The notes under the pieces are model-generated. The model saw nothing but the letters and a program-made list of their open reading frames with translations, did not search any database and was not told the origin of the DNA. From positions 1 to 55,342 of IMG/VR virus record IMGVR_UViG_3300009149_000039: 55,342 nt of DNA, one strand, 5' to 3'. The position numbers and the translations under genes are program-made. Source of the DNA: a virus. Taxonomy: Duplodnaviria; Caudoviricetes. Shown here in pieces: positions 1 through 55,342 of the stretch (position 1 is the stretch's first letter; every line of letters begins with the position of its first letter).

Positions 1-1
1 A

Positions 2-3000
2 TGTACCACTTGTGCCAACTCCAGATGTTCCTGATGTACCACTTGTGCCAATTCCAGATGTACCGCTACTTCCAGAAGTACCACTTGTACCCGAACTACC
101 TGAAGTACCACTTGTACCCGAACTACCTGAAGTACCGCTACTTCCAGAAGTACCACTTGTACCAGATGAACCTGAATTACCACTAGAACCGGAAGTACCG
201 CTACTTCCAGAACTTCCATCTTCACCAGATGTTCCACTACTACCTGAACTTCCGCTACTACCAGAAGAACCTGAAGACCCAGAAGAACCGCTTGTTCCAC
301 TTGAACCGGAACTGCCAGATGTGCCACTTGTACCACTGCTTCCCGAAGACCCAGAACTTCCGCTACTTTCTGATGTACCTGAACTACCAGAAGAACCTGA
401 ACTACCAGAAGTTCCACTTGTCCCTGATGAACCAGATGTACCGCTCGTACCACTTGAACCGCTACTTCCACTTGAACCAGAACTACCGCTTGTGCCTGAA
501 CTTCCATCACTTCCGCTTGTACCACTACTACCCGAACTTCCACTACTTCCTGAACTACCACTTGAACCACTAGACCCTGATGTTCCACTACTACCATCTA
601 GTCCTGATGTACCACTACTTCCTGAAGACCCAGATGTTCCGCTTGTACCACTACTTCCAGAAGACCCGGAACTTCCAGATGTTCCACTTGAACCATCTAT
701 ACCGCTCGTTCCACTGCTACCTGAAGATCCACTTGTTCCTGAACTTCCACTTGAACCACTACTACCTGACGACCCGCTTGTACCACTCGTTCCTGATGTT
801 CCGCTTGTACCACTACTACCATCTTCTCCACTCGTTCCTGAAGAACCACTATTACCTGAAGACCCGCTTGTACCCGATGTTCCGCTACTTCCATCTATTC
901 CTGATGTACCGCTACTTCCTGATGTTCCACTTGTACCAGAACTTCCAGATGTTCCACTTGTACCCGAACTACCGCTAGAACCTGATGTTCCAGAACTTCC
1001 GCTAGAACCTGAAGAACCACTTGTGCCCGAACTACCACTACTACCCGAGGTTCCACTTGTACCAGAATTACCGCTTGAACCTGATGAACCTGAGCTTCCG
1101 CTTGTTCCACTACTTCCATCTTCTCCACTTGTTCCTGAAGAACCAGATGTTCCACTGCTACCCGAGGTTCCACTACTACCATCAATTCCACTCGTTCCGC
1201 TACTACCTGAAGACCCACCGCTTCCTGAACTTCCACTTGTACCAGATGATCCGCTACTACCGCTTGTCCCTGATGTGCCACTTGACCCATCTTCACCAGA
1301 TGAGCCACTTGTACCAGAACTTCCGCTAGAACCTGAAGAACCGCTTGTTCCTGATGTACCAGATGATCCGCTACTTCCATCTTCACCACTCGTTCCTGAA
1401 GAACCCGATGTGCCACTACTACCCGAAGACCCAGAATTTCCACTACTACCTGATGTACCACTACTACCTGATGTACCACTGCTACCTGATGTACCACTGC
1501 TACCAGAAGAACCAGATGTTCCACTCGTACCAGAAGAACCGCTACTTCCCGAACTACCACTAGTACCACTTGAACCATTACTTCCAGAAGAACCAGATGT
1601 TCCGCTTGTTCCAGAACTTCCTGATTCACCACTTGTCCCAGAGCTTCCGCTTGAGCCTGAACTACCACTACTTCCGCTTGTACCACTACTTCCAGAAGAA
1701 CCACTAGAACCCGATGTACCAGAAGAACCACTAGAACCCGATGTACCAGAAGAACCTGATATACCAGATGTTCCACTACTACCAGAACTACCACTTGAGC
1801 CTGAGCTTCCAGATGAACCGCTTGTGCCAGATGTTCCCGAAGAACCGGAACTTCCACTCGTTCCACTACTTCCATCTATACCAGATGTCCCACTTGTTCC
1901 TGAAGAACCTGCGTCACCTTGTTCACCGCTTGTCCCAGAACTACCATCACTTCCTGAACTTCCAGAAGAACCGCTCGTTCCTGAAGTACCACTACTTCCA
2001 TCTTCACCTGATGTTCCGCTACTACCATCATCACCACTTGTACCAGATGTTCCGCTACTACCATCTATCCCACTAGTTCCAGATGACCCTTCAATACCTT
2101 GTTCTCCACTTGAACCACTACTACCACTTGTTCCGCTTGTTCCTGATGTTCCCGAACTTCCATCTTCACCACTCGTTCCAGAACTACCACTACTACCTGA
2201 ACTTCCTGATGTACCGCTTGTTCCAGATGACCCTTCAATACCTTGTTCTCCACTTGTTCCAGAACTACCATTACTACCAGATGTACCGCTTGTACCAGAA
2301 CTACCATCTTCACCGGATGTACCAGAAGATCCGCTAGTTCCAGAAGAACCGCTTGTTCCACTTGACCCAGATGTCCCACCGCTTCCAGAAGAACCGCTTG
2401 TTCCACTTGACCCAGATGTCCCACCGCTTCCAGAAGAACCACTTGTTCCACTACTACCGTCACTTCCACTACTACCTGAGCTACCAGATGTACCGCTCGT
2501 TCCGCTACTTCCATCACTACCTGATGTTCCGCTTGTGCCTGATGAACCGTCTTCACCATCTATACCACTTGAGCCAGAAGACCCGCTTGTTCCAGAACTT
2601 CCATCTACACCACTTGTTCCAGAACTTCCATCTACACCACTTGTTCCACTACTACCATCATCACCTGACGTACCAGATGTACCGCTACTACCACTTGTTC
2701 CAGAACTTCCATCTACACCACTTGTTCCAGAACTACCATCTTCACCAGATGTACCGCTTGTGCCAGAACTACCATCTTCACCAGATGTACCGCTTGTGCC
2801 AGAACTACCATCTTCACCGGATGTACCGCTTGTGCCAGAACTACCATCTTCACCGGATGTACCGCTACTTCCATCACTTCCTGATGAACCCGAACTTCCC
2901 GATGTCCCACTTGTTCCAGATGACCCTTCAATACCTTGTTCTCCACTTGTACCTGAACTTCCTGATGTACCGCTATCGCCACTTGTACCACTACTTCCTG

Positions 3001-4282
3001 ATGATCCAGATGTTCCTGAAGTTCCGCTTGAGCCATCTTCACCAGATGTTCCACTTAAACCACTTGAACCACTTGTACCTGAAGAACCAACATCACCTGT
3101 TGCACCGCTTGTACCAGAACTTCCTGATGTTCCATCTTCACCACTTGTTCCGCTTGAACCTGAACTTCCACTATCACCTGTTGCTCCACTTGTACCCGAA
3201 CTTCCTGATGTACCGCTATCGCCACTTGTACCACTACTTCCTGATGTTCCATCTTCACCAGATGTTCCAGATGAACCACTATCACCTATTCCACCACTTG
3301 TACCACTACTTCCTGATGTTCCATCTTCACCGCTTGTACCTGAAGAACCTGCTTCACCAGTTGCTCCTGATGTTCCTGAACTACCATCTTCTCCTGAAGT
3401 ACCTGAAGAACCAGCATCACCACTTGTTCCAGAACTTCCACTATCACCACTTGTTCCAGAACTTCCACTATCACCACTTGTTCCAGAACTTCCACTATCA
3501 CCACTTGTTCCAGAACTTCCACTATCACCAGATGTTCCACTTGTTCCTGATGTACCTGAAGAACCTGCATCGCCTGATGTTCCACTTGTTCCAGATGATC
3601 CATTATTACCGCTTGACCCACTACTTCCAGATGTACCAGATGAACCTGTATCACCAGATGTTCCACTTGTTCCTGATGTTCCAACACCAGAACTACCACT
3701 AGAACCTGATGTTCCTGAAGACCCAGTATCACCAGATGTTCCTGAAGACCCATCAATACCAGATGTTCCTGAAGAACCAGCATCACCTGTTGCACCACTT
3801 GTACCACTACTACCTGATGTACCATTTTCACCAGATGTCCCAGAACTACCACTATCACCTGAACTTCCAGATGTTCCTGAACTACCCGATGTACCTGTAT
3901 CACCTGTTGCTCCGCTTGTACCACTACTTCCAGATGAACCACTTGTTCCACTACTACCTACATCACCATCAATACCACTTGAACCTGAACTTCCACTTGT
4001 ACCAGATGAACCTAATGTTCCATCTTCGCCACTTGTACCAGATGAACCTGATGTTCCTGATGTACCAGAACTACCTCTTAGACCAGATGTACCGCTAGTT
4101 CCCGCAGACCCACTAATTCCAGATGTCCCAGATGTCCCAGAAGACCCATCACCAATAAGTGTTTGAAGTGTTTCTAAAGATACCTGATAAGTAATCCCAC
4201 TAATTACAATAGTGGTTACACCACTTATACTAGGATTTGTATTTAACGGAAGATCGGTTATATTTTTTCCACATTTAGACAT
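2..4282 (-). CDS. Giant Gly-X-Y (GTS/GSS) Ser/Thr-rich repeat fibre protein, 3' end outside window (>1427 aa)
   Basis: ATG at 4282; reads MSKCGKNITDLPLNTNPSISGVTTIVISGITYQVSLETLQTLIGDGSSGTSGTSG..., then Gly at essentially every third residue to the window edge; absent from ORF track because no stop lies in the window. Confidence 0.9.
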   Translation of the reverse strand, partial: MSKCGKNITDLPLNTNPSISGVTTIVISGITYQVSLETLQTLIGDGSSGTSGTSGISGSAGTSGTSGLRGSSGTSGTSGSSGTSGEDGTLGSSGTSGSSGSSGIDGDVGSSGTSGSSGSSGTSGATGDTGTSGSSGTSGSSGDSGSSGTSGENGTSGSSGTSGATGDAGSSGTSGIDGSSGTSGDTGSSGTSGSSGSSGVGTSGTSGTSGDTGSSGTSGSSGSSGNNGSSGTSGTSGDAGSSGTSGTSGTSGDSGSSGTSGDSGSSGTSGDSGSSGTSGDSGSSGTSGDAGSSGTSGEDGSSGTSGATGEAGSSGTSGEDGTSGSSGTSGGIGDSGSSGTSGEDGTSGSSGTSGDSGTSGSSGTSGATGDSGSSGSSGTSGEDGTSGSSGTSGATGDVGSSGTSGSSGLSGTSGEDGSSGTSGTSGSSGSSGTSGDSGTSGSSGTSGEQGIEGSSGTSGTSGSSGSSGSDGSSGTSGEDGSSGTSGTSGEDGSSGTSGTSGEDGSSGTSGTSGEDGSSGTSGVDGSSGTSGSSGTSGTSGDDGSSGTSGVDGSSGTSGVDGSSGTSGSSGSSGIDGEDGSSGTSGTSGSDGSSGTSGTSGSSGSSGSDGSSGTSGSSGSGGTSGSSGTSGSSGSGGTSGSSGTSGSSGTSGSSGTSGEDGSSGTSGTSGSNGSSGTSGEQGIEGSSGTSGTSGSSGSSGSSGTSGEDGSSGTSGTSGTSGSSGSSGEQGIEGSSGTSGIDGSSGTSGTSGDDGSSGTSGEDGSSGTSGTSGSSGSSGSDGSSGTSGEQGDAGSSGTSGTSGIDGSSGTSGSSGSSGTSGTSGSSGSSGSSGSSGSSGTSGISGSSGTSGSSGSSGTSGSSGSSGSSGTSGSSGSSGSSGSSGTSGESGSSGTSGTSGSSGSNGSSGTSGSSGSSGSSGTSGTSGSSGSSGTSGSSGTSGSSGTSGSSGNSGSSGSSGTSGSSGTSGEDGSSGSSGTSGTSGSSGSSGSSGTSGSSGEDGSSGTSGTSGSSGSSGTSGSSGSGGSSGSSGTSGIDGSSGTSGSSGTSGSSGTSGEDGSSGTSGSSGSSGSSGNSGTSGTSGSSGSSGTSGSSGSSGSSGTSGSSGSSGTSGTSGSSGTSGTSGSSGTSGIDGSSGTSGTSGSSGNSGSSGTSGEDGSSGTSGTSGTSGTSGSSGSSGSSGSSGTSGSSGSSGTSGIDGSSGTSGSSGSSGSSGTSGTSGSSGSSGTSGLDGSSGTSGSSGSSGSSGSSGSSGSSGTSGSDGSSGTSGSSGSSGSSGSSGTSGTSGSSGTSGTSGSSGSSGSSGTSESSGSSGSSGSSGTSGTSGSSGSSGTSGSSGSSGSSGSSGSSGSSGTSGEDGSSGSSGTSGSSGNSGSSGTSGTSGSSGTSGSSGTSGTSGSSGTSGTSGSSGTSGIGTSGTSGTSGVGTSGT

Positions 4283-45904: not shown

Positions 45905-45938
45905 AAAACCTCGGAACAAAATTCCGGGGTTTTTTTTT
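45905..45938 (+). terminator. Attenuator terminator 1
   Basis: aaaacctcggaa-caaaa-ttccggggtttt plus U-run, located upstream of the first tRNA. Confidence 0.85.
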
Positions 45939-45953
45939 GTTCTTTAAAATAAT

Positions 45954-46027
45954 GGGACCATAGCTGAGCCCGGTTTTAGCACTGCTTTTGCAAGGCAGGG
46001 ACGGGGGTTCGAATCCCCCTGGCTCCA
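45954..46027 (+). tRNA. tRNA-Ala(TGC)
   Basis: ctgct-ttTGCaa-ggcag; G3:U70; GTTCGAATC. Confidence 0.85.
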
Positions 46028-46158: not shown

Positions 46159-46236
46159 CGGTAAGTATCCCCCCTGCCTGATACGCAGGAGCGAGGTAAC
46201 TGGTTGAAAATGTGGGTTCGAATCCCACCTTACCGA
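46159..46236 (+). tRNA. Atypical tRNA-Ile(GAT)-like, no D arm, long variable region
   Basis: cggtaag/cttaccg acceptor, cctgc-ctGATac-gcagg, gtggg-ttcgaat-cccac. Confidence 0.55.
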
Positions 46237-46812: not shown

Positions 46813-46888
46813 AATTCCGTAGCTCAGTTGGTAGAGCATTAGATTTTTAATCTAAGGGTCGTGGGATCGTGCCCCACCGGGATTACCA
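46813..46888 (+). tRNA. tRNA-Lys(TTT)
   Basis: ttaga-ttTTTaa-tctaa; encoded ACCA. Confidence 0.85.
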
Positions 46889-47504: not shown

Positions 47505-47588
47505 GCACTTGTAGTTCAATGGGTAGAACATGGGAACGCATTTGCTATTCTTAATCCCAAGATATGAGTTCGAATCTCATCTGGTGAA
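47505..47588 (+). tRNA. tRNA-like with 19-nt anticodon loop
   Basis: Normal D and T arms; tggga-N19-tccca; weak acceptor stem. Confidence 0.45.
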
Positions 47589-48457: not shown

Positions 48458-48582
48458 CAATTTTTAAAATCCCCCGAGGGGGGGTCGGGGAAATAAAATT
48501 AGGAAACAGTTGTTTTTATTAATGTTTTATGTTATATTATGTCGTAAAAGTAGTAAACATTGTCGACAAAAAAGAAAAAAAT

Positions 48583-49017
48583 ATGAAAAAATTATTATGG
48601 TTAGACGATTTTAGGGACCCATTTGATGAAAAATCAAATTGGTTAGCATATAACTCAATACGAATAGAAAAACCATTCGAAATAATATGGGTTAAAAATT
48701 ATGATGAATTTATAGATTGGATAATTAAAAATGGATTACCATACCAAATAAGTTTTGACCACGATTTGGCGGATGAACATTATAGTCCTGATATGTATAA
48801 AACACCAGATGTATATAATAAACATTATGATGATTTTAGAGAAAAAACAGGTATGGATTGTGCAAAATGGTTAATAAGTTATTGTATAAACAATAATGTA
48901 AGTGTTCCTAAATTTACTGTACATAGTGCGAATCCCGTTGGTGGTGAAAATATTCGAGCACTACTTAGTAACTTTATCCGGCATCATCCGGTAATAAATA
49001 ATAAAAATTCTTGTTGA
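48583..49017 (+). CDS. Cyclic-phosphate-processing receiver-domain protein
   Basis: LWLDDFR, ISFDHDL, TGMDCAKWL, VHSANPVG; probable start MKKLLW. Confidence 0.75.
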   Translation: MKKLLWLDDFRDPFDEKSNWLAYNSIRIEKPFEIIWVKNYDEFIDWIIKNGLPYQISFDHDLADEHYSPDMYKTPDVYNKHYDDFREKTGMDCAKWLISYCINNNVSVPKFTVHSANPVGGENIRALLSNFIRHHPVINNKNSC

Positions 49018-49144
49018 TAATCAACCGATTATAAGTTTATCCGGTAATATCTGGCAAAAAGTGTCCATGCAAATGGTATTTTTTATCCATTTTAGGGTAG
49101 CTTGGACATAATGTCCAAGCAAATGTCCAAGCTAACAAAATATA

Positions 49145-49384
49145 TTGAAATTTCTATCGCTCCACGGAGAGGAAATTCGGGACATCATCGCTTAAGGTAG
49201 AAGATAATATCATTAAAAATGCACGATATCATTTATTATGATATTAAGCAAAAATTGTGATATTATCGTTTGTACTACCGAGGATGCAACACAAAACAGT
49301 TTAGAGGGTGAGCGACTCTATTATAACGAGGTAGTGGCAAGTAGATAAATGATAGAATAATACAGAATCCCGGTTATATTTCAA
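49145..49384 (+). ncRNA. rnpB: RNase P RNA, minimal (~240 nt)
   Basis: GAGGAAATTCGGGA and ACAGAATCCCGGTTA (P4 signature), AGATAAATGAT, P1 ttgaaat/atttcaa, P2 ttctatc/gatagaa. Confidence 0.85.
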
Positions 49385-49393
49385 TTTTAATAC

Positions 49394-49465
49394 AGGTGTA
49401 TAGTTCAACGGCTAGAATAATGGTCTCCAAAACCATAGATGGGGGTTCGAATCCCTCTACTCCTG
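49394..49465 (+). tRNA. tRNA-Trp(CCA)
   Basis: atggt-ctCCAaa-accat. Confidence 0.85.
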
Positions 49466-49477
49466 CAAAAAATAAAT

Positions 49478-49557: not shown

Positions 49558-49635
49558 TGGGATTTTGGGTAGGGACAGTATCATGAACTGTTTTGGGTAG
49601 CACCCCCCGTTGAAGTTCGATTCTTCTAATCCCAA
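49558..49635 (+). tRNA. Atypical tRNA-like (CAT), reduced D arm, long variable arm
   Basis: tgggatt/aatccca; cagt-atCATga-actg; gaag-ttcgatt-cttc. Confidence 0.4.
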
Positions 49636-49741
49636 CAGTTAATCGGAATAATTCCGATTATGTGGTTCTTATATCGCAACTTAGTAGTAAAGGTGATATT
49701 AAGATCAAAGATGGGGGAAAACTAATGAAACCCCCATACCA

Positions 49742-50225: not shown

Positions 50226-51095
50226 ATGTTAAAAATTGATGAAGGTTTTGATGAAATAATTAAATGTAATTATGAATTATATTCTGTAAAATTATTTGAA
50301 TTAAAAGAATTAGCAAAATCTTGGTATAAAGATATTAATTTTAATGATTTTGATAATAGATTTATTGGTGATAACGATTCGAATAAACTAATTCAAATGA
50401 AAAAAACCGGTATTTTATGTAATTACTTTTTTGCGTATAAAGAAGATAATATTTATCATCTTCTTGATGGGTTTAATCGGTTATTTACTGATTATGGTCA
50501 TATTAATGTTGACACAACTGTTTATTTGAAAGTTTTAGTAGGGGAGTTAAAAGATAATCACTTAATGTCTATTATGTTTATGCTTAATACTTGGAAATTA
50601 CAAACACAAGGAGTTCATTCATTTAGAATTACGAATTTTTTAGATAGGGGGTTTAGATTATTTTTATATAGTAAATTTGATATAAAACTATATGATTACA
50701 CTAACATTGATTATTACGATAGAATAAGAAACGATAAAGATATAGATGTTTTAGAAAAATATTTTATACGTGAAAGAGAATATAGTGATATGTTTAAATA
50801 TGAATTAGATGATTTAGCTATTCTTTTTTACAATAAAAACATAATAAATGATTTTAAAGAAATAATAAAATCAAATGATTATTTAACTGAACCTTTTAAC
50901 AATTATAATAAATTTCTTTATGGATTTATAATGTGGATATCACATAAAAGAATAAAAGGAGATAATTCTGAATATAAATTTCAAACATATTTAAATAAAT
51001 TATATCAGGATAAAAAATTCTTTAAAAAATTACAAGGAATGTCAGGAACAGACAGCACTAGAAAAAATATTTATAAATTCTTTCGTAATTTATAA
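50226..51095 (+). CDS. Hypothetical protein (ParB-like LLDGFNR motif)
   Basis: 289-aa ORF with its own TATATTTG promoter at 50193-50200. Confidence 0.65.
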   Translation: MLKIDEGFDEIIKCNYELYSVKLFELKELAKSWYKDINFNDFDNRFIGDNDSNKLIQMKKTGILCNYFFAYKEDNIYHLLDGFNRLFTDYGHINVDTTVYLKVLVGELKDNHLMSIMFMLNTWKLQTQGVHSFRITNFLDRGFRLFLYSKFDIKLYDYTNIDYYDRIRNDKDIDVLEKYFIREREYSDMFKYELDDLAILFYNKNIINDFKEIIKSNDYLTEPFNNYNKFLYGFIMWISHKRIKGDNSEYKFQTYLNKLYQDKKFFKKLQGMSGTDSTRKNIYKFFRNL

Positions 51096-51206: not shown

Positions 51207-51297
51207 CGCGGGATGGAGCAGTCAGGTCAGCTCGCTAGGCTCATAACCTAGATTCGGTATCAATCCGCTTGCGAGGGTTCAAATCCCTCTCCCGCAA
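51207..51297 (+). tRNA. Initiator-like tRNA-fMet(CAT) with long variable arm
   Basis: C1:A72 mismatch, ggagcag..gctcg D arm, ctagg-ctCATaa-cctag. Confidence 0.75.
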
Positions 51298-51386
51298 CAA
51301 AATAAATTGGTATTATTTATATATATTTATATAAGTAATTGTAAAATTAAGGGGTATTTATACCATTATTTATATTTACTTATATT

Positions 51387-51910: not shown

Positions 51911-51947
51911 AAAAGACCCGGACTTAAAAAAAAGTTCGGGTTTTTTT
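51911..51947 (+). terminator. Attenuator terminator 2
   Basis: aaaagacccggactt-aaaaaa-aagttcgggttttttt. Confidence 0.85.
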
Positions 51948-52138: not shown

Positions 52139-53095
52139 TAATAAAATACCGTAAAATTCTAATAATCGAACCAGAGGGGGTGTTTTTATGTGTTTTAAGT
52201 TATATTTATACTATATGAAACATAAATATAATAAAGAACAAGTACAAATAGCAGTAAAAAATAGTTTTTCTATTGCCCAAGTTTGTAGAGAATTAAAAAT
52301 ACGACCATCTGGAGGGAATTATGACACCGTAAAAAAATTGTTCAAAAAATGGGATATTAATATTGATCATTTTACTGGACAAGGATGGAATGTTGGTTTA
52401 AAATTTAAACCTTATAAAAAATACGAACTAAAAGATGTATTAATAAAAAACTCTCCATATAGGTCGACATATTCACTTAAAAAACGATTAATAAAGGAGG
52501 GGGTTAAAAAAAGAATGTGTGAAAACTGTTTTAGAGAAACGTGGATTAATAACCCAATCAATTTAGAACTTCATCACATAAATGGTGATAACACCGATCA
52601 TAGACTAGTAAATTTATTACTACTATGTCCAAATTGTCACTCATATACCCCAAATTTTAGAAAAGGTAAGAGTGCTCTTTCTGAAAAGAAAGAAGTAGAA
52701 TACCGTAAATTCAAGGAAACCTTAACACATAATGGTGATGGCAATCTTGAGCCAAGCTTTTTAACAAAAGAAGGTGCAGAGACTAGACACGGTAAATCTA
52801 AATCTAAAGATGAACATATTTGTTTAAATTGTAAAAAAATATTTTATAATAGAAATAAAGAAAGAAAATATTGTTCAACCAAATGTTATAGAGAACATAT
52901 AAAAATTAATATTCCTAAAGTACCTGAGTTAATAAAAAAATTTAAAGAATTAAAAACATTTACAAAGGTTGGGGAATTTTACTCTGTAAGTGATAACGCC
53001 GTAAAAAAATGGTGTAAATCATATGGAATTTTAGACATGATTAAGGAATAGTCCAGACCACAAACAATAATAGTAATGAAAATTATAGTGGTACG
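52139..53095 (+). ncRNA. Group I intron (tRNA-Leu-type core) with endonuclease ORF
   Basis: AAATTCAAGGAAACC, GGCAATCTTGAGCCAAG, GAAGGTGCAGAGACTAGA, AAGGAATAGTCC; terminal G. Confidence 0.9.
52188..53051 (+). CDS. Intron-encoded HNH homing endonuclease
   Basis: LELHHINGDNTDHRLVNLLLLCPNCHS; C-terminal CLNC..YCSTKC and HTH; start may be MKHKY at 52215. Confidence 0.85.
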   Translation: MCFKLYLYYMKHKYNKEQVQIAVKNSFSIAQVCRELKIRPSGGNYDTVKKLFKKWDINIDHFTGQGWNVGLKFKPYKKYELKDVLIKNSPYRSTYSLKKRLIKEGVKKRMCENCFRETWINNPINLELHHINGDNTDHRLVNLLLLCPNCHSYTPNFRKGKSALSEKKEVEYRKFKETLTHNGDGNLEPSFLTKEGAETRHGKSKSKDEHICLNCKKIFYNRNKERKYCSTKCYREHIKINIPKVPELIKKFKELKTFTKVGEFYSVSDNAVKKWCKSYGILDMIKE

Positions 53096-54627: not shown

Positions 54628-55137
54628 ATGAAAAAATGTAAACAATGTGAAAAGGAATTAAAAAATCAAAAAAATATATTTTGTTCTAGTAGTTGTGCTG
54701 CAAAATATAATAATCCACGATATCACAAAAAAAAAGATAGATTTTGTTTACAATGTGAAGAAAAATTATTAAAAGAAAAAAAATACCATAACAAATTTTG
54801 TGACTCTAAATGTTCTAATCTTTATAAGTTTGAAAATGTCACATTAAAAAGATTTAATGACGGCAATGTATCAAAAAATACAACATTAAGAAAAATATTA
54901 ATAAACTTATATGGTAATTATTGTTTTGAGTGTAAACAACCTAATAACTGGAATGAAAAGGAATTAATATTAGAGGTTGACCACATAGATGGAAATTCAG
55001 ATAATAATCTACCAAAAAACCTTAGATTATTATGTCCTAATTGTCATTCACAAATGCCAACATCAAAATGTAAACATAAAAAAAAGAACACTAAACGAAA
55101 TAATTATTTACGAAAATTTAAACAGTATGAAACTTAA
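54628..55137 (+). CDS. HNH endonuclease with zinc-ribbon repeats
   Basis: CKQC..FCSSSC-type unit x2; LEVDHIDGNSDNNLPKNLRLLCPNCHS. Confidence 0.9.
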   Translation: MKKCKQCEKELKNQKNIFCSSSCAAKYNNPRYHKKKDRFCLQCEEKLLKEKKYHNKFCDSKCSNLYKFENVTLKRFNDGNVSKNTTLRKILINLYGNYCFECKQPNNWNEKELILEVDHIDGNSDNNLPKNLRLLCPNCHSQMPTSKCKHKKKNTKRNNYLRKFKQYET

Positions 55138-55225: not shown

Positions 55226-55342
55226 CAACATTAAATTGGCTACGATTATTATTACTTCTAGGTTAATTCGCCCCTTAAAAACGGGCGATAATGGTTCAAA
55301 TCCACTATGTAATCAATTCCCAATTTATTTTTGCGAAAGTCG

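Follow-up and report, generated by a model that had tools for sequence, protein, structure and literature searches.

The RNA of RNase P is a ribozyme universal among cells. It is built of two domains, one catalytic and the other for recognition of the tRNA elbow, and this design is deemed a hallmark of the bacterial enzyme. To our knowledge, the single well-known natural exception to this design is found in a few archaea. The minimal RNase P RNA of these organisms (Pyrobaculum/Thermoproteaceae) is said to have been described by Lai et al. in 2010 and is reportedly also called type T. Here we report a 242-nt homolog of bacterial type-A RNase P RNA, in which a single variable hairpin takes the place of the specificity (S) domain, from a contig of a tailed virus (Duplodnaviria; Caudoviricetes), IMG/VR record IMGVR_UViG_3300009149_000039. 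The window analyzed is the whole stretch of 55,342 bases of this record (positions 1–55,342), whose completeness is estimated at ~18%. Reduced organellar rnpB genes, such as those of fungal mitochondria and plastids, are also AT-rich, shortened, and located beside tRNA genes in small genomes. However, they belong to another lineage, show another set of deletions, and work with organelle-specific proteins, and they are likened to the phage RNA by description, not by sequence.

The phage RNA resembles the bacterial type-A class (RF00010, the class of Escherichia coli M1 RNA) in the order of its helices (P1–P7 and P15–P17), in a P4 pseudoknot with a bulged U, in the P6 pseudoknot between J5/7 and L17, and in the blocks CR-I, CR-IV, and CR-V, the GCAA of J5/15, and the GGU of L15. 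It differs from this class in length (242 nt here and 185–303 nt in the family described below, vs. a typical 340–420 nt according to passages of PMC4919922), in the absence of the S domain (P8–P14, CR-II, and CR-III) and of P18, in a P3 of 2–3 bp, and in a score under the gathering score of the model. Moreover, its gene is that of a phage and lies within a tRNA array, and no rnpA was found in five other large phage records that carry members of the family. The Pyrobaculum-type RNA (type P in passages of PMC4919922) likewise consists of the catalytic domain only, with the S domain nearly absent, and falls into a similar size class. However, that RNA is archaeal and cellular, is the only RNase P RNA of its organism, and works with archaeal proteins, whereas the phage RNA has retained the bacterial P6, P16/P17, and L15 GGU, with the bacterial type-A model as its best match. 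The reduction in phages was therefore independent of that in the Pyrobaculum type.

Engineered bacterial RNase P RNAs that consist of the C domain only have the same content as the phage RNA and, according to passages of PMC4919922 (refs 75–77 therein), cleave pre-tRNA with or without RnpA. These are laboratory truncations, whereas the phage RNAs are natural, are under selection, and have a conserved junction and a hairpin at the former site of the S domain. GOLLD-type large noncoding RNAs are comparable in their setting, each being a structured RNA gene in mobile tRNA arrays with HNH endonucleases (passages of PMC6582537), but their function is not known and they lack an RNase P core, whereas the phage RNA is an RNase P homolog.

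In the literature searched, with subscription journals and supplementary files outside its scope, we found no account of an RNase P RNA encoded by a phage, nor is there one in the passages of PMC11143913, PMC2996960, PMC4919922, PMC6582537, PMC7824862, and PMC13282480. The term "RNase P" occurs in the passages of neither a comparison of 224 jumbo-phage genomes nor a 2026 review of jumbo phages. The family of mini RNase P RNAs appears to be undescribed so far. It represents a catalytic-domain-only version of bacterial lineage in viruses, with at least 45 distinct covarying copies on large phage contigs among tRNA genes.

Identification and Structure of the Phage RNA

In a search of a 501-nt stretch (48950–49450) with permissive thresholds, RF00010 (bacterial type-A RNase P) aligned its model positions 1–367 to positions 49141–49392 of the window with 45.2 bits (E-value = 6.6e-13); the E-value was 1.8e-14 in a search over the whole record. 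The bacterial type-A model gave the best match within the RNase P clan, and two lower overlapping clan matches were dropped. The score falls below the gathering score of RF00010, which is 100. The alignment keeps the consensus blocks GAGGAAA.UC.GG (CR-I with the 5' strand of P4), GCAA, GGU, UAGAU.AAUG, and ACAGAA.CC.G.UUA (CR-V with the 3' strand of P4). On the other hand, 14 positions of P3 and all of P18 are deleted, and 108 positions of the S domain are skipped, with 53 unaligned nt in their place. Only 5 nt separate P15 from the TAGAT sequence that follows it, and P18 is absent.

The structural elements and neighboring features are listed in table 1. Helix coordinates were read by hand and checked by script, and P1 was found by a complement search. 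The plain minimum free energy (MFE) fold of the window RNA was weakly better than the folds of shuffled sequences (z = -2.12; 6 of 200 shuffles equaled it); the two pseudoknots cannot be represented in a fold of this kind. For P15, two further outer G-C pairs were rejected, as they clash with P5.

The first-pass annotation of the window, made from its letters, had placed the RNA at 49145–49384, which is one base off at each end, and its P1, P2, P4, P5, P7, and AT-rich hairpin are present at the sites it gave, within one base per end. Its central proposal, a phage-borne RNase P RNA of ~240 nt without an S domain, is supported, and tailed-phage genes are found on the contig. The covariance-model match that it anticipated was obtained with RF00010, though below the gathering threshold, and a full S domain, which would have spoken against the proposal, could not be aligned. 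The RNA also lies inside a tRNA array, among 28 tRNA genes predicted by ARAGORN on the same (plus) strand.

Table 1. Coordinates of the RNase P RNA, its structural elements, and neighboring features in the window
Feature	Position	Strand	Basis and remarks
Whole RNase P RNA gene, 242 nt	49144-49385	+	Ends set by P1; RF00010 match 49141-49392; 144 bits with core model R1 (see below) on core 49169-49376
P1, 8 bp, ATTGAAAT/ATTTCAAT	49144-49151 / 49378-49385	+	Complement search
P2, 7 bp	49152-49158 / 49351-49357	+	Complement search; covariation of inner 5 pairs
P3, miniature, 2 bp (UC/GA), CACG loop	49161-49168	+	RF00010 alignment; covariation
CR-I block GAGGAAATTCGGGAC	49169-49183	+	Agrees with RF00010 consensus
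P4, 7 bp, U 49177 bulged	49174-49176, 49178-49181 / 49369-49375	+	Script-checked; covariation
P5, CATC.../...GATG	49183-49189 / 49280-49286	+	Covariation, 99-100% paired in the 18- and 28-sequence counts
P6 pseudoknot, GCUUA/UGAGC, J5/7 to L17	49190-49194 / 49309-49313	+	84-93% paired
P7, GGUAG/CUACC	49196-49200 / 49275-49279	+	87-100% paired in the 18- and 28-sequence counts
AT-rich hairpin GATAATATCA/TGATATTATC, 65 nt	49203-49267	+	Inverted repeat and fold; stands where the S domain would be
Conserved 7-nt junction GTTTGTA	49268-49274	+	Consensus ...CGnTTGnAC... of alignment A3
J5/15, CAA	49287-49289	+	Read by hand from the bases after the 3' strand of P5
P15	49290-49292 / 49334-49336	+	Covariation
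P16	49299-49301 / 49325-49327	+	Covariation
P17	49303-49306 / 49316-49319	+	Covariation
L15, GGU	49330-49332	+	GGT invariant in 18/18
CR-IV-like block AGTAGATAAATG	Within 49340-49376, before the 3' strand of P2	+	RF00010 alignment; P18 not before it
CR-V block ACAGAATCCCGGTTA, holding the 3' strand of P4 (49369-49375)	Within 49340-49376	+	RF00010 alignment
tRNA-Trp(cca)	49394-49466	+	ARAGORN; Rfam tRNA model, 64.4 bits; begins 8 nt past the end of the RNase P RNA
cREC (cyclic-phosphate-processing receiver) domain ORF	48529-49017	+	PF20274, E-value 6.6e-22; directly upstream of the RNase P RNA
HNH endonuclease genes within the tRNA array	52188-53051, 54628-55137	+	PHROGs, E-values 3.4e-51 and 2.3e-20
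ClpB/Hsp104-like double AAA+ ATPase, 668 aa	42572-44578	+	AAA_2, E-value 6.6e-67; ClpB_D2-small, E-value 1.7e-20; 4.5 kb upstream of the array
tRNAs found by Rfam only	46159-46236, 47505-47588		Rfam tRNA model, absent from ARAGORN calls
Candidate tRNA with four-base anticodon	47241-47314		Atypical prediction in the array
tRNA-Gln, 79 nt	49558-49636		Atypical prediction in the array
tRNA-Met, 92 nt	51207-51298		Atypical prediction in the array
tRNA-Phe(aaa), 64 nt	55251-55314		Atypical prediction in the array

A Family of Mini RNase P RNAs in Large Phage Contigs

When IMG/VR was scanned with a pattern combining CR-IV and CR-V, 92 stretches matched. In many of these the distance from CR-I to CR-V was 137–230 nt, vs. 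260–300 nt in the ordinary type-A copies found there. We built a covariance model of the core, named R1, which has 156 positions and 22 nested pairs, contains no pseudoknots, and does not include P4; its E-values are rough. Over the window and 93 fetched loci carrying candidate relatives (designated by L-numbers), R1 gave 57 matches, 27 of which scored at least 100 bits and spanned 152–244 nt, the window RNA scoring 144 bits. Ordinary type-A copies reached 30–58 bits with spans of ~275–313 nt. A second scan of IMG/VR with a pattern of the 5' half only returned 37 stretches, 27 of them new. These, together with five stretches from a genome collection, yielded 30 R1 matches, again with 27 at 100 bits or above.

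The family therefore totals 54 R1 matches of at least 100 bits with 45 distinct cores. The G+C content of these cores ranges from 0.34 to 0.59, and they are not assembly duplicates of one sequence. Fifty of the matches lie on viral contigs (the window included) and four on contigs of the genome collection. Many of these contigs are longer than 100 kb, about ten are longer than 200 kb, and the mini form is also present in unrelated large phage contigs. The full length of the RNA is 185–303 nt (median 228.5; n = 32 members with P1 located and a sound assignment). The GCAA and GGU (GGT) motifs, which were part of no search pattern, are invariant in all 18 sequences of one alignment of the cores (A3).

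In blastn searches of 50,697 phage records the window RNA had no match, and neither did the RNA of L014; the RNA of L072 gave two weak matches, which were then confirmed by R1. An exact 17-nt pattern of CR-I had two matches, one of which (L002) was a chance match in a coding region.

Covariation Analysis

Across the family, the fold of the RNA and its core nucleotides are under purifying selection. Two counts of base pairing were made. The first used 18 cores (alignment A3) and a hand-drawn structure that includes both pseudoknots: 91.0% of the cells were paired, vs. 69.5 ± 1.1 in shuffled alignments (0 of 500 reached the observed value) and 31–44% in slid controls, and 26 of the 34 pairs change on both sides. 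The second (alignment A5) used 27 sequences outside the training set of R1 plus the window. Here 96.3% of the cells were paired, vs. 75.8 ± 0.8 in shuffled alignments (0/500) and 29–45% in slid controls, and 26 of 34 pairs showed compensatory changes; the P4 and P6 pseudoknots, neither of which is in R1, were part of this count.

P4 was 100% paired in the 18 sequences and 99.5% paired in the 28 sequences, with compensatory changes at five of its seven pairs. As P4 is not part of R1, its pairing cannot have been fitted by this model. The P6 pseudoknot was 84.1% and 92.6% paired in the two counts, respectively, and P15, P16, and P17 each had compensatory changes at three to four of their three to four pairs. 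Pairing in P2 and P3 was determined from nine full-length sequences aligned with MAFFT alone: P2 was 90.9% paired over its inner five pairs (four of five compensatory), and P3 was 94.4% paired (two of two compensatory). In addition, a complement search located P1 and P2 in 34 of the 45 distinct relatives, with differing letters; we gave this less weight than the alignment counts because such a search selects for complementarity and has no shuffled control.

Replacement of the Specificity Domain by a Variable Hairpin

Where the S domain would be, the phage RNA has a single variable hairpin. In the window, P7 encloses an element of 74 nt, vs. 119–158 nt for the ordinary type-A copies in this model-based alignment. 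The window hairpin comprises a 10-bp outer stem, an A-rich internal loop, an 8-bp inner stem, and a 5-nt loop. In 14 of the 27 first-round matches of at least 100 bits, the enclosed element has shrunk to 19–20 nt, that is, a 3-bp stem, a tetraloop, and the junctions; in the others it reaches up to 107 nt. The relatives share no sequence in this element, and only its flanks are conserved (GGAG...CGnUUGnAC). Since the element is short, variable, and unshared in sequence, nothing is left that could carry CR-II and CR-III, the blocks that touch the D and T loops of tRNA according to passages of PMC4919922.

The closest relatives of the window RNA (L120, L110, L109, L116, L115, and L102) are 232–243 nt long. 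Three of them (L120, L110, and L109) share the P3 of the window and have, at the site of the hairpin, two stems (outer and inner) separated by an internal loop, although the sequences are unrelated. A perfect 10-nt complementarity between the top of the window hairpin (49227–49236) and the CR-IV/P2 region (49345–49354) is not kept in close relatives, and we regard it as a chance occurrence in AT-rich sequence.

Genomic Setting and Copy Number

The mini RNA is typically found among tRNA genes on its own strand. The fetched loci contain 432 same-strand tRNAs vs. one on the opposite strand, and 35 of the 45 distinct relatives have a same-strand tRNA within 300 nt. In 17 of the 45, at most 10 nt separate the 3' end of the RNA from the start of a downstream tRNA, and in nine a tRNA ends within 10 nt of its 5' end.

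Five large records were examined for copy number: three from IMG/VR (357–476 kb, 97–100% complete) and GenBank LR756502.1 (642 kb) and LR756511.1 (595 kb). Each contains exactly one R1 copy. RF00010 detected the mini RNA in only one of these five at E-value ≤ 1 and in none above its cut-off. It found no second, full-size, or S-domain-bearing locus in any of them, the only two other matches lying elsewhere with 8–11 bits. The mini RNAs have remained unannotated because RF00010 misses or underscores them. This represents a blind spot of annotation, in which all of these RNAs stay under the Rfam threshold and the standard model missed the RNA at E-value ≤ 1 in four of five large phage genomes.

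A pattern for the short form matched only five stretches in 185,579 species-representative genomes, four on contigs of metagenome bins and one in an isolate genome. One of the metagenome-bin contigs (425,361 bases) has the same length and core as an IMG/VR record. The bacterial isolate (loci L124/L131 and L130) has two RNase P RNAs, as scored by RF00010: a normal one (202.2 bits, 405 nt) and, on another contig, a mini one (82.7 bits, 224 nt), and the latter lies in an array of 32 tRNAs within 8 kb. It follows that the mini RNA belongs to mobile tRNA arrays as an accessory gene and does not serve as the housekeeping enzyme of a cell. This isolate may also serve as a laboratory system.

Possible Function and Alternative Explanations

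We consider it likely, judging from the sequence comparisons above, that the RNA is a functional phage-borne type-A RNase P RNA made of the catalytic domain only, which would be freed by tRNA processing and would trim phage pre-tRNAs, probably together with the host RnpA. By descent the RNA is a bacterial type-A ribozyme, cut down to P1–P5, the P4 and P6 pseudoknots, P7, and P15–P17 with the GGU loop; P3 has been reduced to a tetraloop hairpin, P18 lost, and the S domain swapped for the variable hairpin. The RNA would be transcribed as part of the phage tRNA array, and its 3' end may arise when RNase P cuts the transcript at the 5' end of tRNA-Trp; this tRNA begins 8 nt downstream and would also be the likely first substrate. 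In this way the mini RNase P would add capacity for removing the 5' leaders of phage tRNA precursors.

The substrate may be held via the acceptor stem and the cleavage site, via contact of the L15 GGU with the 3' CCA once the latter has been added, and via the protein cofactor; such contacts would be required, because no domain that reads the T/D elbow is present. As for the cofactor, the host RnpA is our guess, as no phage RnpA was found in the five large records. According to passages of PMC4919922, pre-tRNA is cleaved by the C domain of the bacterial RNA on its own, both in the presence and in the absence of RnpA; rate and affinity are then reduced. If the mini RNA is active, phages would supply a tRNA-maturing enzyme besides tRNAs, and these natural minimal bacterial RNase Ps would provide a set of small and diverse ribozymes for structural and mechanistic study, in which recognition of tRNA without an S domain becomes directly testable.

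Several observations weigh against this interpretation. At the gathering threshold, all 23 Rfam matches in the whole window are tRNAs and none is an RNase P RNA, and the score of the RNA with RF00010 is less than half of the gathering score. P3 has just 2–3 bp and P18 is missing. The family was fetched with patterns taken from conserved blocks, and the invariance of these blocks is therefore partly imposed by ascertainment. This holds for CR-IV, whose invariance is in part due to the CR-IV/CR-V pattern; loci found with the 5' pattern alone keep close variants of the 3' blocks. The DNA fetched at five of the 45 loci contains no tRNA, no tRNA lies closer than 3 kb to the gene in LR756502.1 and LR756511.1, and what precedes the gene in the window is not a tRNA but an ORF and a 126-nt spacer. 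RnpA (PF00825) is absent from all five large records carrying the RNA, three of which are 97–100% complete, the window's own record not being searched; the same search was positive in 10 of 14 control genomes, those ten being bacteria. Only one of the 28 predicted tRNAs of the window, tRNA-Lys (46813–46888), encodes a 3' CCA, so the contact between GGU and CCA needs earlier CCA addition. A look-up of RNA runs found none with the stretch, a result that speaks neither for nor against its expression. Finally, loss of the S domain weakens substrate affinity in bacterial enzymes according to passages of PMC4919922.

A more far-reaching proposal, which we regard as possible but rather doubtful, is that large phages carry a self-contained module for tRNA maturation. 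It would consist of a catalytic-domain-only ribozyme of 185–300 nt that is cotranscribed with the tRNAs, frees itself by cutting the abutting tRNA, dispenses with elbow recognition, and works possibly without RnpA or with a phage protein, so that dense and partly noncanonical arrays would be matured independently of the host enzyme. Were this the case, it would be the smallest natural RNase P of bacterial lineage, and the loss of the S domain would have been independent and repeated.

In line with a suggestion of the first-pass annotation, the S domain might instead have been lost because phage tRNAs with missing or enlarged D arms are rejected by an RNase P that reads the elbow, resulting in an enzyme tuned to its substrates. 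Such tuning would agree with the odd tRNA predictions in the window array, which include tRNA-Phe(aaa) of 64 nt, tRNA-Gln of 79 nt, a candidate with a four-base anticodon, and tRNA-Met of 71 nt as well as disagreements between ARAGORN and Rfam, and an enzyme without CR-II and CR-III cannot check the T/D elbow (passages of PMC4919922). However, nearly all tRNAs in the arrays of the relatives (e.g., L072, L097, L099, and L124) are of ordinary predicted length, and the nearest downstream tRNA of the window, tRNA-Trp with 64.4 bits, is canonical. Because the relatives sit among tRNAs of ordinary length, atypical substrates are not needed as an explanation, and we consider this origin unlikely.

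The conservation of the GnTTGnA junction next to P7, while the hairpin itself varies, together with the A-rich internal loop of the window hairpin, would fit an enzyme whose specificity is supplied in trans, the source being either another RNA or a phage protein that docks on the hairpin or on the 7-nt junction. Yet the search of the five large records with RF00010 revealed no second locus beyond the matches of 8–11 bits, the hairpin is reduced to 3 bp and a tetraloop in 14 of 27 members and would leave little to dock on, and no conserved neighboring ORF was seen, most copies being flanked by tRNAs. A split or protein-substituted enzyme of this kind thus seems improbable.

It is also conceivable that the RNA is a noncatalytic decoy or regulator that titrates host RnpA or pre-tRNAs and thereby stops host tRNA maturation or times the processing of the array. 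In favor of this, the domain that binds RnpA in bacteria is kept, the high-affinity substrate domain is lost, and no phage RnpA was found in the five large records. We nevertheless regard this as very improbable, since the bulged-U P4, the J5/15 GCAA, the L15 GGU, and the P6 pseudoknot, all invariant or covarying, are needed for chemistry and docking and not for protein binding, and the placement in phage tRNA arrays beside tRNA 5' ends suits an enzyme.

That the RNA is a decaying nonfunctional relic of a captured host rnpB, or cellular DNA misbinned as viral, is hardly credible: the Rfam score below threshold, the large deletions, and the deviant G+C content of the first 4 kb of the window would be in line with it, but every helix shows compensatory changes across 45 distinct sequences, one copy is kept in each of the five large genomes, genes for the major head protein, portal, and TerL are on the same contig, and the same form recurs in unrelated large phage contigs.

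The Surrounding Record and tRNA Array

The contig of the window carries tailed-phage genes for the major head protein, portal, and TerL. Its TerL is at most 29% identical to any TerL in the 50,697 phage records, and the nearest relatives of this protein include those of uncultured phages of 484 and 595 kb. The G+C content of the window is ~29% outside the first 4 kb. Positions 1–4282 have a G+C content of 0.48–0.49 (vs. ~0.29 elsewhere), a strongly negative GC skew, and long open frames in either orientation (minus strand, 1427 aa; plus strand, 1387 aa) that reach past the contig end.

Between position 45,954 and the window end, ARAGORN predicted 28 tRNA genes, all on the plus strand, and the Rfam tRNA model predicted 23. 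Seven ARAGORN calls have no match with the Rfam model, and two Rfam calls have none in ARAGORN. Besides the atypical predictions listed in table 1, the odd ones also include the 71-nt tRNA-Met mentioned above. The HNH endonuclease genes are scattered through the array, as is also the case in other mobile tRNA regions.

In this array, the RNase P RNA gene is located between the cREC-domain ORF and tRNA-Trp (table 1). A study of jumbo phages ties the cREC domain to RNA-end repair beside RNA ligases (passages of PMC7824862), and the presence of this ORF directly upstream points to a theme of tRNA repair next to the tRNA-processing RNA. A neighboring ORF of 289 aa (50226–51095) matched no Pfam or PHROG family, and a search for relatives with this ORF as the query found none.

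The spacer upstream of the RNA is strongly structured: the fold of 49010–49143 has an MFE of -38.2, vs. -23.4 ± 3.6 for shuffled sequences (z = -4.08). Within it, GCTTGGACAT (49100–49109) can pair with either tandem copy of ATGTCCAAGC (49111–49120 or 49123–49132). This layout of alternative pairings might be what the first-pass annotation had called an attenuator. The structured spacer and its alternative-pairing repeat do exist, but attenuator control of the array is not supported: no terminator-like site is present just upstream of the RNA gene, the nearest strong ones on the plus strand being at 45905–45933 and 51911–51946, and promoter-like matches are near chance (59 vs. 46.7 ± 7.6).

Other RNAs in the Fetched Loci

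The second match of the exact CR-I pattern, L003 (positions 1–319, at the end of an IMG/VR contig), is a different phage RNase P-like RNA. RF00010 positions 32–367 align over 319 nt with 49.4 bits, the RNA being cut by the contig end, and 16 tightly packed tRNAs follow directly. It has no R1 match at E-value ≤ 0.01 and seems to retain more of the S region. A second reduced architecture was observed in phage tRNA arrays at L040 (692–856) and L091 (2873–3024), which score 61–74 bits with R1. In these RNAs P16/P17 are deleted (31 model positions vs. 1 nt), and an element of 49–61 nt lies inside P7.

Suppressor tRNAs are predicted on several contigs with the mini RNA, namely L042, L012, L096, and L100 (anticodon cta) and L019 (anticodon tta); such tRNAs for UAG and UAA hint that some of the phages recode stop codons. 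In addition, tmRNA genes are present in the arrays of L072, L074, and L101.

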